Below are positions 2,260 to 7,513 of a DNA stretch of 7,513 nucleotides, in pieces. Origin of the DNA: a virus. Lineage: Duplodnaviria > Heunggongvirae > Uroviricota > Caudoviricetes. The stretch lies in IMG/VR virus record IMGVR_UViG_2609460344_000015, positions 1 to 7,513 of that record. One strand, 5' to 3'. The translations under genes and the position numbers were made by a program. Every line of letters starts with the position of its first letter. The stretch's first letter is position 1. A model generated the notes under the pieces. It worked only from the letters and a program-made list of their open reading frames with translations, made no database searches and was not told the DNA's origin.

Positions 2260-2442
2260 ATGACATTTATTCATCAGGTGATGCTGTACTTCTGTACGGC
2301 GGTCTGTGTGCTGTATCTTCTTTCGGGTGGGTACAGGGCAGTGCGCGATTTCTGGCGCAGGCAGATTGATAAAAGGGCCGCAGAGAAAATCAGTGCCAGT
2401 CAGTCAGCCGGAACAAAACCCGAAGAGCCTCTCATTCCGTAG
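2260..2442 (+). CDS. Hypothetical small membrane protein (60 aa)
   Basis: ATG 2260 preceded by weak SD (taAGAAAct); translation has one hydrophobic helix (IHQVMLYFCTAVCVLYLLSGGY) then a charged tail. Not recognised by me. Confidence 0.4.
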   Translation: MTFIHQVMLYFCTAVCVLYLLSGGYRAVRDFWRRQIDKRAAEKISASQSAGTKPEEPLIP

Positions 2443-2479
2443 CAACTTTCTTAACAACACCTTTCAACGAGAAAATACC

Positions 2480-2749
2480 ATGTCAGAAATAAAATCGCTG
2501 GTCACTGCTGAAGCAGTGAAGGAAGTCCTGCGCTCTGAAGAAGTCAGAAGCGCACTGAAACAGCAACTTCGGCAGAACCTTGAGGCGCGTCTTGATGCAG
2601 AAGTGGATGCCATTCTGGATGAACTGCTGGGCGCACCGACTGTTCCGGAGCCGGAAGGCATTGCGGATGACAGTGCTGTTTCAGATGGCGTCGGGTCTCA
2701 GCCTGATGGTAGCAGTGAGCCTCAGCCTGACGGCGAAATGATGATGTAA
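2480..2749 (+). CDS. Hypothetical acidic protein (89 aa)
   Basis: ATG 2480 in frame with listed ORF 2306..2749; the upstream extension overlaps ORF 2260..2442 so the internal ATG is preferred. Translation MSEIKSLVTAEAVKEVLRSEE... is a helical N-half followed by an Asp/Glu/Pro/Ser-rich tail. SD is weak (GAGAAAA). Confidence 0.5.
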   Translation: MSEIKSLVTAEAVKEVLRSEEVRSALKQQLRQNLEARLDAEVDAILDELLGAPTVPEPEGIADDSAVSDGVGSQPDGSSEPQPDGEMMM

Positions 2750-2824
2750 CCATGCGCAGGGGCTGTCGGTGTGAGCTGATGCCCCTCTTGTTGTTGTGAG
2801 CTTCCGGATTGCGGGAGACGGGGT

Positions 2825-3040
2825 ATGTACCAGATGGAAAAAATCACAACAGGTGTGTCATACACCACGTCAGCGGTGGGAACGGGCTACTGGTTCCTGC
2901 AGTTGCTGGACAGGGTTTCCCCGTCTCAGTGGGCGGCAATAGGCGTGCTGGGGAGTCTGCTGTTTGGTCTGTTGACGTACCTGACGAACCTGTATTTCAA
3001 AATCAGAGAGGACCGTCGTAAGACGGCACGGGGAGAGTAG
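2825..3040 (+). CDS. S: Class II holin, phage 21 S-like (pinholin type), dual-start motif
   Basis: 71 aa; starts MYQMEK with Met1 (2825) and Met4 (2834); SD GGGAGA 2813-2818. Two hydrophobic helices and the C-terminal FKIREDRRK...RGE tail that I recall from phage 21 S and Stx-phage holins. Confidence 0.9.
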
Positions 3041-3043
3041 GTG

Positions 3044-3124
3044 ATGAACCATGAAGAAATGAATCAGCGCTTCAGTCGTCTGGAAAATGAAATTGCTGAA
3101 CTGAATAAAAACTGTCGGCGCTGA
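3044..3124 (+). CDS. 26-codon leader ORF translationally coupled to the downstream moron gene
   Basis: Good SD GGGGAGAG 3031-3038 overlapping the holin stop, ATG 3044; encodes MNHEEMNQRFSRLENEIAELNKNCRR; its TGA (3122-3124) overlaps the ATG (3124-3126) of the next ORF. Confidence 0.3.
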   Translation: MNHEEMNQRFSRLENEIAELNKNCRR

Positions 3125-3600
3125 TGCCTTCTGAAGATGAAAAAAAACGCCGCGATGAGCAGTTTGCTGCGTTTGACGATTATTGTCGGAAAGTGATGAG
3201 CAGAAATCTCGCAGAGTGTTTCAGTATTCATAATGATAATTTCAGTGAGCTGGAATGGGAGTGTAACCGGCCATCCTTTGTTGTATCCGGTGATGCTGGG
3301 AAAATAACCATCTCAGAAAATGGGAAAGTAACACCTCCATCGCACCAGCACAGTGAGGAGCTCATTGAATTTGCCATTGATTACCTGAAGAACAATAAAA
3401 AGCAGGGGCTGATGAAGCGCGTTGGCCGTTGCATGGGATATCTTCAGGTAGCCGCTGAGATTGAAGCGCTGGCCAGTGGTGCTGATAAGGATGCAATTGT
3501 GCGGGAGGCTCTTCTTCGTGATTTTAATACTCCACCCTTTAAAAAAGTGCCGGCTTACTGGCTTCATCCGGGGCTGACTTATCTTAAAGTGCGTATTTAG
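3124..3600 (+). CDS. Hypothetical protein (158 aa), moron between holin and endolysin
   Basis: Uninterrupted ORF, no own SD (appears coupled to the leader ORF), no predicted membrane helix by eye, visibly lower GC than flanking lysis genes. Function unknown to me. Confidence 0.6.
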   Translation: MPSEDEKKRRDEQFAAFDDYCRKVMSRNLAECFSIHNDNFSELEWECNRPSFVVSGDAGKITISENGKVTPPSHQHSEELIEFAIDYLKNNKKQGLMKRVGRCMGYLQVAAEIEALASGADKDAIVREALLRDFNTPPFKKVPAYWLHPGLTYLKVRI

Positions 3601-3636
3601 TGGGCCAGGGACAGCGGCTGAATATTTAATATATCC

Positions 3637-4170
3637 ATGAACACCAAAATCAAATACGGCCTGTCGGCTGCCGTTCTGGCGCTGATTGCCGCTGGTGCGC
3701 CTGCGCCTGACATTCTCGACCAGTTTCTGGATGAAAAGGAAGGTAACCACACCACGGCATACCGTGATGGCGCGGGTATCTGGACCATCTGTCGCGGTGC
3801 CATTCTGGTGGATGGTAAACCTGTCGTCCCGGGCATGAAGTTGTCGAAGGAGAAATGCGACCAGGTTAACGCCATCGAACGTGATAAGGCGCTGGCATGG
3901 GTGGAGAAAAACATCAAAGTGCCATTGACCGAACCCCAGAAAGCGGGGATCGCGTCATTCTGTCCGTACAACATTGGTCCCGGTAAGTGTTTCCCGTCGA
4001 CGTTTTACAGACGAATTAATGCTGGTGATCGCAGGGGAGCATGTGAGGCGATTCGCTGGTGGATTAAGGACGGTGGCAGAGACTGCCGTATTCGTTCAAA
4101 CAACTGCTACGGTCAGGTATCCCGTCGTGACCAGGAGAGCGCGCTGGCGTGCTGGGGTATCGACAGATAA
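3637..4170 (+). CDS. R: SAR endolysin (phage lysozyme, GH24 muramidase, phage 21 R-like)
   Basis: 177 aa; N-terminal signal-anchor-release segment YGLSAAVLALIAAGAPAP followed by the lysozyme catalytic region EKEGNHTTAYRDGAGIWTICRG (Glu-Asp-Thr triad pattern). Pairs functionally with the pinholin upstream. Confidence 0.9.
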   Translation: MNTKIKYGLSAAVLALIAAGAPAPDILDQFLDEKEGNHTTAYRDGAGIWTICRGAILVDGKPVVPGMKLSKEKCDQVNAIERDKALAWVEKNIKVPLTEPQKAGIASFCPYNIGPGKCFPSTFYRRINAGDRRGACEAIRWWIKDGGRDCRIRSNNCYGQVSRRDQESALACWGIDR

Positions 4171-4260
4171 GCAGAATATTTTGCTGAAAAATAAGGCATG
4201 GCCACGCGGGCGGATAACATGAAATCCTGCGAACTGGCGAAACGTAAGTGAATAAAAGTA

Positions 4261-4299
4261 AAAACCCCGTTTGTTGGCAGCAAGCGGGGTTTTGTTTTT
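4261..4299 (+). terminator. Rho-independent terminator between endolysin and the small-ORF array
   Basis: Stem CCCCGTTTG (4265-4273) / CAAGCGGGG (4281-4289) with one G-U pair, 7-nt loop, flanked by AAAA (4261-4264) and followed by TTTTGTTTTT (4290-4299). Confidence 0.7.
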
Positions 4300-4364
4300 A
4301 TGGCAGTAAGCTATGGGAGGCTGCCTTGATTGATTTTAGCAAACTGATTAGGGAGTTGCGACTC

Positions 4365-4460
4365 ATGATTAGTCAATTACCAAACTGGAAATTTTTGCTG
4401 GTCTGGAGCATCCCTTTTTTATGGGTAGTATCCCAGTTAATTGTGGCAATTAAGGGGTAG
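4365..4460 (+). CDS. Small hydrophobic peptide P1 (31 aa)
   Basis: SD GGGAG 4351-4355, ATG 4365; MISQLPNWKFLLVWSIPFLWVVSQLIVAIKG is a single predicted TM helix. Lies in an AT-rich stretch. Confidence 0.3.
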   Translation: MISQLPNWKFLLVWSIPFLWVVSQLIVAIKG

Positions 4461-4462
4461 CT

Positions 4463-4594
4463 ATGTCAGACAAACTCATAACGCCGGCAAAGGTCCTGTG
4501 TGTGATTGTCGGTATTTCATTTTCACTAATGCTGGTTGCTCTTTTTCTGTCCCTCGCCTGGGTGATGTTGTCTTCGTCGGGGCTGCTGGGGTGA
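4463..4594 (+). CDS. Small hydrophobic peptide P2 (43 aa)
   Basis: SD AAGGGG 4452-4457, ATG 4463, starting 2 nt after the P1 stop; MSDKLITPAKVLCVIVGISFSLMLVALFLSLAWVMLSSSGLLG has one long TM helix. Confidence 0.4.
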   Translation: MSDKLITPAKVLCVIVGISFSLMLVALFLSLAWVMLSSSGLLG

Positions 4595-4596
4595 CA

Positions 4597-4713
4597 GTGA
4601 CTGATGACATCAGCAGAGCGCTGGCTTTTGCTATTAAGTGGGTGGCTGTTGGTATTGCTGTGTCTCCGATGCTGTATGGGCTGGCTAAACTGGTCATTGC
4701 GCTGAAATCGTGA
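4597..4713 (+). CDS. Small hydrophobic peptide P3 (about 38 aa, GTG start), paralogue of P4
   Basis: GTG 4597 (alternative GTG 4591 overlapping the P2 stop); VTDDISRALAFAIKWVAVGIAVSPMLYGLAKLVIALKS. Aligns with P4 across the N-terminus and helix. Start codon uncertain. Confidence 0.3.
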   Translation: MTDDISRALAFAIKWVAVGIAVSPMLYGLAKLVIALKS

Positions 4714-4724
4714 ACTTTAAAAAG

Positions 4725-4811
4725 ATGAGTGCTGAACTTATTCGGGCAATGGCATTTGCCATTCGTATTGTGGCCATTGCTGTTCTGGTCTGGGCAATCC
4801 GTTGGTGGTGA
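4725..4811 (+). CDS. Small hydrophobic peptide P4 (28 aa), paralogue of P3
   Basis: ATG 4725; [28 protein letters not shown]; stop TGA 4809-4811 lies 1 nt before the Rz ATG 4813. SD weak. Confidence 0.3.
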
Positions 4812-4812
4812 T

Positions 4813-5280
4813 ATGAACCGTGTTCTGTGTGTGGTGATTATTGTCCTGCTGGTAGCCTGTGGTGTGCTTAGTCTGGGGCTGAATCATTACCGCGATAACG
4901 CCATCACCTACAAAGCGCAGCGCGATAAAAAAGTCAGTGAGCTGAAACTGGCGAATGCCACTATTACTGATATGCAGCAGCGCCAGCGCGATGTTGCTGC
5001 GCTCGATGCAAAATACTCGAGGGAATTAGCCGATGCGAGAGCTGAAAATGAAACTCTGCGTGCTGATGTTGCCGCTGGTCGTAAGCGCCTGCGGGTCAAC
5101 GCCACCTGCCCCGGTACCGTGCGTGAAGCCACCGGCACCTCCAGCGTGGATAATGCAACCGGCCCCCGACTGGCAGACACCGCTGAACGGGATTATTTCA
5201 TCCTCAGAGAACGGTTGATGACAATGCAGAAGCAGCTGGAAGGGGCGCAGGAATATATCCGCACTCAGTGCCTGAAATAA
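4813..5280 (+). CDS. Rz: Rz i-spanin (inner-membrane spanin subunit)
   Basis: 155 aa; N-terminal TM helix then [16 protein letters not shown]...[16 protein letters not shown]...[24 protein letters not shown], closely matching lambda Rz as I recall it. Listed ORF 4729..5280 is an upstream GTG extension; ATG 4813 gives the lambda-like N-terminus. Confidence 0.9.
5033..5218 (+). CDS. Rz1: Rz1 o-spanin (outer-membrane lipoprotein spanin), embedded in the +1 frame of Rz
   Basis: 61 aa; lipoprotein signal with lipobox LVVSAC, Pro-rich mature part [32 protein letters not shown] matching lambda Rz1 as I recall it; entirely inside Rz. Confidence 0.85.
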
Positions 5281-5322
5281 GTTTTGTTGATGCGCCGTAT
5301 CGTCGCTGTATTCCCTCATTAA

Positions 5323-6227
<905 letters not shown>

Positions 6228-6234
6228 GGAGGTC

Positions 6235-6843
6235 ATGGTGGATAAGGGAAAAGAGATTATTGCAGTACGAAATGCAGCCTGCAACGAATACGGCGGGATA
6301 AACTGTGAGGTGCAGTTTGAAGATGCGGTCAATGAAAAAGGAGAGCAGGTATGGCTGCCGTATACCGCAACGGAAACGGATAATACAGAACACGGAAAAG
6401 CCTTGTGGTCGGGGCTGACAGCAGGAACATACGGAAGTGTGAGTGCCTTTGTTGCCACGGAAGCAATACTGGAAGCGGCAAAGGCGGCGAAAAGGGAAGA
6501 GATTAATATCTGGCGTGATGTGCAGGAGAATATGGAATACGTGATGGAATTCAACGGAAGGAACTGGGATTACGGCAAGAAGACGTTGTCCAGGATAAGC
6601 ACGACACGACTGATGGCAGAGAACAACCGTCTTCCGGAAGGGTTTGCCTGGACGGACGGGGATAATAATGTGGTGCCGGTAACGGCGGCGGAGATAATTG
6701 CGCTGGCAGATGCGACAGAGCAGGCGATGTTTGCGAAAGGTGTGGAGATTAATACACGTCAGCTTCAGATGAAAGCAGAGGTTGAGGCGCTGACAGAGCT
6801 GAAGGCGATCCGCAGTTATGTTGTCGGATGGCCTGCAAGCTGA
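6235..6843 (+). CDS. tfa: Tail fibre assembly protein (Tfa / Caudovirales tail-fibre chaperone family)
   Basis: 202 aa, immediately downstream of the tail-fibre gene; SD AGGAGG 6227-6232 overlaps the upstream stop (spacing to ATG 6235 is short, GTG 6238 is an alternative). Contains LPEGFAWTDG, resembling the LPENFTWLSPGG motif of lambda Tfa as I recall it, and a C-terminal ...VVGWPAS like the EWP ending of Tfa proteins. Confidence 0.65.
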   Translation: MVDKGKEIIAVRNAACNEYGGINCEVQFEDAVNEKGEQVWLPYTATETDNTEHGKALWSGLTAGTYGSVSAFVATEAILEAAKAAKREEINIWRDVQENMEYVMEFNGRNWDYGKKTLSRISTTRLMAENNRLPEGFAWTDGDNNVVPVTAAEIIALADATEQAMFAKGVEINTRQLQMKAEVEALTELKAIRSYVVGWPAS

Positions 6844-6845
6844 GT

Positions 6846-6873
6846 AAAAAAAACGGGACCACGGCCAGTCCCG
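6846..6873 (-). terminator. Intrinsic terminator for the minus-strand ykgJ-like gene (also caps tfa on +)
   Basis: Stem CGGGAC (6854-6859) / GTCCCG (6868-6873), 8-nt loop; A8 at 6846-6853 on + becomes a U8 tract directly after the hairpin on the - strand. On + only a weaker T-run follows (6884-6889). Confidence 0.5.
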
Positions 6874-6987
6874 GAACCATGAGTTTTTTAGGGTATTAGT
6901 TTGTTATCATAATTAGCGTGCTAAGTATGCCGTATCAGGCTGATTAGTGAAGTGATGTTGTTCGCATTTTTGCACGGCGGAGAATAT

Positions 6988-7317
6988 TCAGATTTTGGGA
7001 AATCCATATTTTTCCCGTGCGCGGTTACATGCTTCATTCGCGATGCCATTTTCGCCGGACATTGCGAATTCCCTGCATGTGGACGGACGGTTTTTGTAAA
7101 CAGAGCAATATGCGTTTTCACCGGGGGGGCCGGCCAGAGCGACACATCGGGGATTTTTCTGATTGGTGCCGCGCATACAGCGATGAAAAGGAGATATTTG
7201 CTCAGTGAGACTGACCGGGACGTTTCCGCCAGCATCATCGGCTTCAGCCCAGTAAAAAGAGACGCGGAAAAATGCACAACAGGCACCACACGTCATGCAT
7301 GGATTCGGATTGTTCAT
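6988..7317 (-). CDS. ykgJ: YkgJ-family cysteine-cluster protein (CxxCxxCC putative zinc/iron-chelating domain), chromosomal
   Basis: Minus-strand ORF; from the internal Met the product [31 protein letters not shown]... is 109 aa with the CxxCGxCC signature. The 19-codon upstream extension to ATG 7374 ([13 protein letters not shown]...) is encoded by a U-rich hairpin and looks non-coding. No clear SD at 7317, so the start is not certain. Confidence 0.7.
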
Positions 7318-7334
7318 TTTTATACTATTTGTTG

Positions 7335-7370
7335 TTTTTTCAGCGATCAGATAAAAGGGCGCTGAAAAAA
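7335..7370 (-). promoter_or_regulatory. Hairpin in the probable 5' UTR of the ykgJ-like gene
   Basis: 11-bp inverted repeat TTTTTTCAGCG (7335-7345) / CGCTGAAAAAA (7360-7370) with 14-nt loop, 18-53 nt upstream of the chosen start on the - strand. Confidence 0.3.
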
Positions 7371-7387
7371 ACATTCTCCAAAATTAG

Positions 7388-7393
7388 ATTATA
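7388..7393 (-). promoter_or_regulatory. Candidate -10 hexamer (TATAAT on - strand) for the ykgJ-like gene
   Basis: Reverse complement of 7388-7393 is a perfect TATAAT with G at -14; no good TTGACA-like -35 at 16-18 bp spacing. Sequence match only. Confidence 0.3.
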
Positions 7394-7415
7394 ACTATTT
7401 GATTTTATGGATAGA

Positions 7416-7449
7416 GGCATGCTTTTTACGAAAAAGTAAAAAGCATGCC
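7416..7449. promoter_or_regulatory. Perfect 12-bp inverted repeat (GGCATGCTTTTT / AAAAAGCATGCC) with 10-bp spacer upstream of the ykgJ-like promoter region
   Basis: Arms at 7416-7427 and 7438-7449. Sits where a -35 or activator site would be for the candidate -10; could be an operator or the terminator of the upstream minus-strand gene beyond the window end. Confidence 0.4.
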
Positions 7450-7513
7450 AAATTTGCCATTAACTCTTTGAATATTCAGCACTAATCATCTATTTCGGTT
7501 GCCTTCTTATTCA

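Follow-up and report, generated by a model that had tools for sequence, protein, structure and literature searches.

Among the described systems close to the locus analysed here is K-12 YdfR (b1555, P76160; 103 aa), which is encoded in the Qin prophage in the order essQ-ydfR-rrrQ and which, like the 114-aa ORF47 of BP-4795 in the same essQ/S to rrrQ/R slot, consists of the DUF1327 domain (PF07041) only. A literature search for ydfR and DUF1327 turned up just one study of an interaction with RNase E and a single mention in comparative genomics. [quoted passage not shown] An N-terminal DUF1327 domain (E about 1e-45) is also found in two larger proteins, i.e., gp05 of Stx2 phage 86 (YP_794052.1; 268 aa, "YdfR family protein") and the 329-aa Stx2_95 protein BCI50300.1. 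These proteins can be described as a mosaic of three modules: M1, which is DUF1327; M2, a coiled coil plus a EKKRRDEQFAAF.DYC helix; and M3, a C-terminal domain of ~115 aa with the motifs GRCMG(Y/L)LQVAAEIEA, DF(N/D)xPPFK, and WxxPGxxYLKxR. The Stx2_95 protein carries all three (M1+M2+M3), whereas gp05 lacks the coiled coil and the EKKRRDEQFAAF module (M1+M3).

The 7,513-nt stretch of DNA analysed here (hereafter, the window) represents the late part of a lambdoid prophage of the Stx type, and its gene between holin and lysozyme combines M2 with M3, as does the protein WP_062891728.1 from the same slot of an Stx1c prophage of Escherichia coli ST866. In Stx phage genome records, the genes for gp05 and the Stx2_95 protein occupy this slot as well, and the C domain of gp05 is 83% identical to residues 44-158 of the 158-aa product encoded here (E=2e-73). 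DUF1327, in contrast, is absent from every reading of the window gene, that is, from its 158-aa ORF, from a preceding 26-aa ORF, and from the intact 185-aa relative P0001, and a BLASTP comparison of K-12 YdfR with P0001 returned no alignment. YdfR shares 47% identity with the N-terminal part of the Stx2_95 protein, which places it in the same mosaic family by way of the fusion proteins. The initial annotation, which was made from the letters of the window, had mentioned a small ydfR-like gene in this position of some lambdoid prophages: The position is indeed that of ydfR in Qin, but the kinship runs via the fusion proteins only, and no sequence similarity was detectable between K-12 YdfR itself and the gene described here.

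The holin-lysozyme interval and its prophage

The interval is bordered upstream by an intact gene for a 71-aa class II (phage 21 S-type) holin at 2825..3040 on the + strand (PF04971, E=1.4e-32; "class II holin family protein" in the annotation of relatives) and downstream by an intact gene for a 177-aa lysozyme with a hydrophobic N-terminal (SAR-like) segment at 3637..4170, also on the + strand (PF00959, E=1.4e-24; "lysozyme" in relatives). The last codons of the holin gene contain the SD of the next gene: As read from the sequence, the SD-like element GGGGAGAG at 3030..3037 (+) would serve the ATG at 3044, which lies 7 nt further on, and the equivalent ATG, 4 nt past the holin stop, is the annotated CDS start in relatives. 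The ORF that begins here is short (26 codons from ATG 3044, or 27 from GTG 3041) and ends with a TGA at 3122-3124. The ATG of the 158-aa ORF (3124..3600, +) shares the A of this TGA, yielding a TGATG stop/start overlap at 3122..3126 (+), and no GGAG-like SD was read in the sequence before this second ATG. The short ORF, the overlap, and the missing SD had been listed in the initial annotation, whose literal statements all hold and which read these elements as a well-initiated leader ORF that is translationally coupled to a cargo gene lacking an SD of its own.

Its other remarks on this accessory gene, which a lambdoid prophage carries between holin and endolysin, were borne out as follows. The GC content is 0.45-0.47 over 3001-3600 versus 0.55-0.56 in the flanks. 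The highest 19-residue Kyte-Doolittle mean is 0.75, and there is therefore no membrane helix. Neither the 26-aa ORF, the 158-aa ORF, nor the intact P0001 has a match in Pfam. The comparison with a moron held up in part: The deviant base composition is there, but the gene has neither its own promoter nor its own terminator, as no sigma-70-like promoter was found upstream of it, and its 3' end contains only a weak hairpin (3559-3576, inside the gene), after which the sequence ACTTATCTTA stands in place of a T run. Because no promoter-like site precedes the gene, it would be transcribed together with the lysis genes from pR'. An Rfam search of the window returned no RNA family.

The surrounding prophage is decaying. 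Upstream of the holin, the window carries a broken SASA/NanS-p-type esterase gene (164-2124, in the pieces 164-1390 and 1168-2124), followed by DUF1378 (2260-2442) and DUF826 (2480-2749) ORFs. Downstream of the lysozyme lie Rz (4813-5280) and Rz1 (5033-5218) and, directly after them, the GC-rich remnant of a tail fibre with collagen-like GXY repeats (about 5480-5960; GC content 0.63-0.69), an ORF resembling tfa (6235-6843), and, on the − strand, a chromosomal CxxCxxCC (YkgJ-type) gene (6988-7374), beyond which the related record L033 continues with potB/potA-like transporter genes, an M20 peptidase gene, and a JmjC gene. Since terminase, head, and tail genes are missing 3' of Rz in the window, where just the tail-fibre remnant is left, the prophage is defective. 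In another related record, L006, a deletion extends from the lysozyme to tfa. The esterase gene is broken by the loss of one T at ~1145 (GTTTA-GACGG here; GTTTATGACGG in records L028 and L033), and, as this site is not a homopolymer, it constitutes a second pseudogene in the window.

Two further features were seen between the lysozyme and Rz: a strong terminator-like hairpin at 4261-4293 (a 15-pair stem with a T run) and, after it, three small hydrophobic ORFs at 4463-4594, 4604-4705, and 4710-4811. The corresponding interval in ST866 also contains small hypothetical ORFs.

Comparison with uninterrupted relatives

A protein search revealed that the nearest relatives of the gene are 185 aa long (97-91% identity; clusters of 78-338 member sequences). 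These proteins start with MNHEEMNQRFSRLENEIAELNKKLS(A/T/V)LMPSEDEKKRRDEQ... and run across the junction as ...ELNKKLS[A/T/V]LMPSEDEKK... without a break, so that the "leader" is continuous with the "cargo." The 5' fragment at 3044..3124 (+) has the same sequence as the N-termini of P0001, P0002, and P0009, which are 185-aa proteins, and the 158-aa ORF is 97% identical to P0001. A PHROG scan placed the two ORFs side by side on one and the same family, with the 26-aa ORF at positions 117-139 of phrog_1085 and the 158-aa ORF at positions 141-296 (E=9.8e-104), while the intact P0001 spans positions 117-296 unbroken (E=2.6e-112). On phrog_36381, likewise, the 26-aa ORF falls at positions 1-23 and the 158-aa ORF at positions 28-122.

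At the DNA level, E. coli ST866 has the holin and lysozyme of the window and, between them, one 558-nt CDS, that of WP_062891728.1 (grouped here with clusters P0001, P0002, P0004, and P0009), whose DNA equals that of the window apart from one extra A and one SNP: With A6 the ST866 ORF is uninterrupted, whereas with A5 the window ORF is split. The single relevant DNA difference is thus AAT AAA AAA CTG (A6) in the relatives versus AAT AAA AAC TG (A5) at 3107..3111 (+) in the window, as located by alignment with ST866 and with the E. coli OkiPb01678 copy and by a run-length survey of 35 loci. From these comparisons the 26-codon ORF and the 158-aa ORF can be recognized as the two halves of one 185-aa prophage gene (MNHEEMNQRFSRLENEIAELNKKLSALMPSEDEKK...). 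What had been taken for a leader corresponds to native codons 1-22 (MNHEEMNQRFSRLENEIAELNK) of this gene followed by four out-of-frame codons (NCRR) and the TGA, as a result of an A6-to-A5 deletion, and the 158-aa ORF corresponds to its codons 28-185. The window copy thereby shares with its family the whole-protein match to phrog_1085 and the position between a class II holin and a lysozyme, and lacks the uninterrupted ORF of ~185 aa.

Our preferred reading, to which we assign a probability of about 0.88, is that the loss of a single A from an A6 tract has split a catalogued prophage gene, which in its intact form would encode a cytoplasmic protein, and that this allele is inherited in a decaying Stx-type lambdoid prophage. 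One A would have been lost from the tract at 3107-3111, changing AAT AAA AAA CTG into AAT AAA AAC TG. Ribosomes that start at ATG 3044, using the native SD in the 3' end of the holin gene, would then translate 22 native codons and four wrong ones before stopping at the TGA at 3122-3124. The rest of the gene would stay open in the −1 frame from 3109 onward (K L S A L M ...), where the first ATG, at 3124, is the codon of Met28, a conserved internal residue of the intact protein. Because the frameshift puts the new stop over this Met28 codon, and no reading frame but the shifted one contains this TGA, the TGATG overlap would be an accident. Termination-reinitiation at the UGAUG could produce at most a little protein, which would be devoid of the N-terminal helix.

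When intact, the gene is evidently a real one. Over 30 allele pairs drawn from nine distinct 185-aa alleles, the median dN/dS was 0.2, pointing to purifying selection on the intact gene. With more than 100 homologues and this ratio of ~0.2, the 158-aa ORF can be regarded, on comparative grounds, as other than a chance reading frame. The N-terminal helix is among the best-conserved parts of the protein, with L13, E14, L20, N21, K22, K23, and S25 being nearly invariant.

Frequency and origin of the shortened tract

To place the A5 allele among its relatives, we used a 71-nt query across the junction. Of 5,426 complete E. coli genomes, 884 contain a match to the region, the junction stretch is present in 231, and not one of the latter (0/231) matches the A5 version exactly: The first run is A6 in 231/231. 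Each of the best matches listed for the A5 query has a single gap and spans 72 nt of the record. With A6 in the query, 95 genomes match exactly, and the remainder of the 231 differ from it through substitutions. Exact-pattern scans of IMG/VR gave A5 in 3 contigs and A6 in 26 (26/29), and the A5 pattern was absent from the GTDB species representatives. Matches with BLAST ranges of 73-74 nt, which had hinted at extra indels in some complete genomes, are artefacts of the way in which the GCAAACAAA variant is aligned.

The window is nevertheless not alone. The same A5 occurs in five other records, L004, L005, L006, L033 (GCA_000249675.2), and L034 (GCA_907175995.1), which represent at least three assemblies; L004 and L005 are contigs of one IMG genome, and L006 comes from another. 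Two further candidates, L035 and L036, were rejected: They had been picked up for their exact 158-aa product, but their DNA has A6, and the ORF call is short since the contig starts inside the gene. Relative to window positions 2260-7513 (5.25 kb), L004 and L005 align without gaps and carry 40 and 23 substitutions, respectively.

L004 (IMGVR_UViG_2609460344_000014) and L005 (IMGVR_UViG_2609460344_000019) are 99.2% and 99.6% identical to the window, both with A5. The presence of two copies of the decayed region in one genome suggests a duplication or a gene conversion between prophages. As a separate observation, position 3023 in the holin gene is A in the window (Thr, ...RRKTARGE) and G (Ala) in L002, L004, L005, and L006; within 2990-3660, it is the sole substitution between the window and the other A5 records.

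The reading that competes best with an inherited mutation is a sequencing or assembly error, where the true genome would have A6 and an intact 185-aa gene, and the homopolymer was undercalled. The difference is, after all, one base in a homopolymer, A5 occurs in no complete RefSeq E. coli genome, and the neighbouring A8 run is off-frame elsewhere (A9 in OkiPb01678, A7 in L006), which is the pattern of homopolymer errors; an assembly error might, moreover, have been copied between related records, and a single genome contributes two of the A5 contigs. These points are outweighed by the recurrence of the same A5 in the five other records from at least three assemblies, in two of which (L004 and L005) the flanks are 0.4-0.8% different, by the position of the window's other frameshift, that in the esterase at ~1145, outside any homopolymer, and by the gross deletions that the prophage has undergone in any case. 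Since five further records of this decayed prophage also have A5, the allele was most likely inherited within one prophage lineage rather than arising as a repeated read error, and we consider an undercall distinctly unlikely.

A reversible switch was considered next, in which slipped-strand mispairing in the A6 and A8 tracts would turn the gene ON and OFF as in a phase-variable (contingency) locus. The gene does have two A tracts within its first 35 codons, the second being the A8 run at 3140..3147 (+), near the 5' end, and the tracts are off-frame in three lineages (A5 here, A9 in OkiPb01678/01712, A7 in L006). In OkiPb01678 (ACZ5Q8_RS17465) the A9 lesion of the second tract is independent of the one in the window, and PGAP calls this copy a frameshifted pseudogene; it resembles the window copy in having a one-base change in a 5' A tract, but the change is +1 in the second tract there and −1 in the first tract here. 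However, both tracts are short for efficient slippage. All 231 complete genomes have A6 in run 1, and many intact alleles have an interrupted run 2 (CAAACAAA, CAAAAAAA), which is therefore not maintained as a tract. The off states are, furthermore, fixed in decaying-prophage lineages, with no variation seen within a strain. We regard phase variation as very improbable.

The coupling originally proposed, in which a well-initiated short leader feeds ribosomes to an SD-less cargo via the UGAUG, fares worse still. UGAUG overlaps support termination-reinitiation in bacteria, and both the TGATG overlap and the missing SD are real. Yet, nearly all relatives read the leader in frame as the N-terminus of the protein that also contains the cargo, the leader residues belong to the best-conserved ones of the family, and no allele other than the frameshifted one has the stop codon. 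A separate leader is absent from 231/231 complete genomes and from 26/29 IMG/VR contigs, and, with this layout missing in nearly all relatives, the coupling is no evolved design. There is also no sign of selection on a coupled product, as A7 instead of A8 in the second tract of L006 breaks the 158-aa ORF itself after a few codons, 16 nt downstream; since this second frameshift destroys what the first had left open, nothing indicates that the remnant is being preserved. An evolved coupling is thus extremely improbable, and the "leader plus TGATG-coupled cargo" is, as judged from the comparison of alleles, the signature of a slippage-type frameshift rather than a regulatory device.

We give next to no credence to recoding, in which a programmed −1 frameshift or transcriptional slippage would restore the 185-aa protein from the A5 allele, because, although a −1 shift on AAU-AAA-AAC would give exactly ...NKKLSALM... 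as read from the sequence, the zero-frame heptamer is U AAA AAC rather than X XXY YYZ, RNA polymerase would hardly slip on a tract as short as A5, just one prophage lineage has the two-frame layout, and, with an in-frame A6 as the norm, nothing needs recoding.

The deletion of one base from a homopolymer can, in this way, mimic a designed uORF arrangement. As the apparent leader-ORF coupling vanishes upon comparison with relatives, the finding itself carries little weight, and the residual value of the locus lies in the family to which the split gene belongs, a mosaic gene that many records of Stx phages and prophages show between a pinholin-type holin and a SAR-type lysozyme.

The intact family and its possible function

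This family, phrog_1085, is already catalogued, narrow, and uncharacterised, and the window holds an ordinary pseudogene of it. Two other entries, phrog_36381 and phrog_26186, appear to be pieces of this gene and, like phrog_1085, stand in the catalogue without a function. A profile search of 1.84 billion representatives yielded 41 proteins; among the matches listed, those examined were of enterobacterial prophage type and therefore offered no route to a characterised relative. When the 158-aa ORF, the intact protein, and distant relatives were scanned against Pfam, NCBIfam, and PADLOC and, by sequence profile, against the PDB, no significant match emerged, such that a clear homology to a family of known function, which the initial annotation had allowed for, did not emerge.

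For the structure of the intact protein, we turned to AF2. With a shallow alignment (P0001 and 26 E. coli sequences) the pLDDT was 55, and this model was discarded. With a more diverse alignment the mean pLDDT rose to 81.7, reaching 86-97 over residues 51-140 and 81 toward the C-terminus, with a value of about 90 for the C domain. The predicted architecture consists of a long N-terminal helix, a disordered linker, and a three-stranded sheet packed on four helices. This conserved C-terminal domain of ~115 aa, with its three short strands and four helices, is encoded at 3250..3597 (+), as delimited by the alignment and the AF2 model. Searching the C-domain model against the PDB and BFVD returned no significant structural match. 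The C domain is under purifying selection and confidently modelled, with no fold relative found in these searches, and some phages have it joined to the YdfR domain.

The initial annotation had named lysogenic conversion, defence, and lysis regulation as candidate functions. Holins, antiholins, and spanins have a TM helix or a lipoprotein signal; here, the KD(19) maximum of 0.75 leaves no TM helix, and the model shows a soluble alpha/beta domain. The defence profiles of PADLOC-DB matched neither the 158-aa ORF nor P0001, P0057, or P0114. The intact protein is therefore neither a membrane lysis effector nor a known defence protein.

What it might do instead can be approached from the position of the gene, from its domain fusions, and from one paper on K-12 YdfR (PMC13232886). 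On these grounds we tentatively picture the intact protein as a soluble late accessory factor that acts via protein contacts, perhaps together with M1 on host RNA turnover or lysis timing, a guess that we hold to be more probably wrong than right. The reported binding of RNase E (PMC13232886) concerns M1, the domain that the window ORF lacks, and is not transferable to that ORF. A more far-reaching version appears to us quite unlikely: In it, the C domain would be an Stx-phage late effector that works with DUF1327/YdfR (through RNase E on RNA decay, on late or stx transcripts, or on lysis timing), and the reinitiated 158-aa remnant would still be partly active in the lysogen.

Two relatives illustrate how the modules and the position of the gene vary. 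In the 161-aa protein of E. coli O145 RM10425, M2 is joined to an unrelated C-terminal module, and, by comparison of the sequences, the N-terminal M2 module appears to act as an adaptor common to different C domains. The O145 gene (record L043, 670-1155; E. coli O145 RM10425-C1, WP_001457151.1) lies in the same slot, and its C-terminal module is without a Pfam match. In Salmonella enterica subsp. diarizonae (GCA_007695665.1; record L038, 4001-4498), a distant homologue of 165 aa, P0149, is encoded upstream of the holin. Its neighbours are Q and ParE-HTH genes on one side and the holin on the other, i.e., it does not lie between holin and lysozyme, and from this position, after Q and before the holin, the gene is better described as a late-operon gene than as strictly a member of the lysis cassette.
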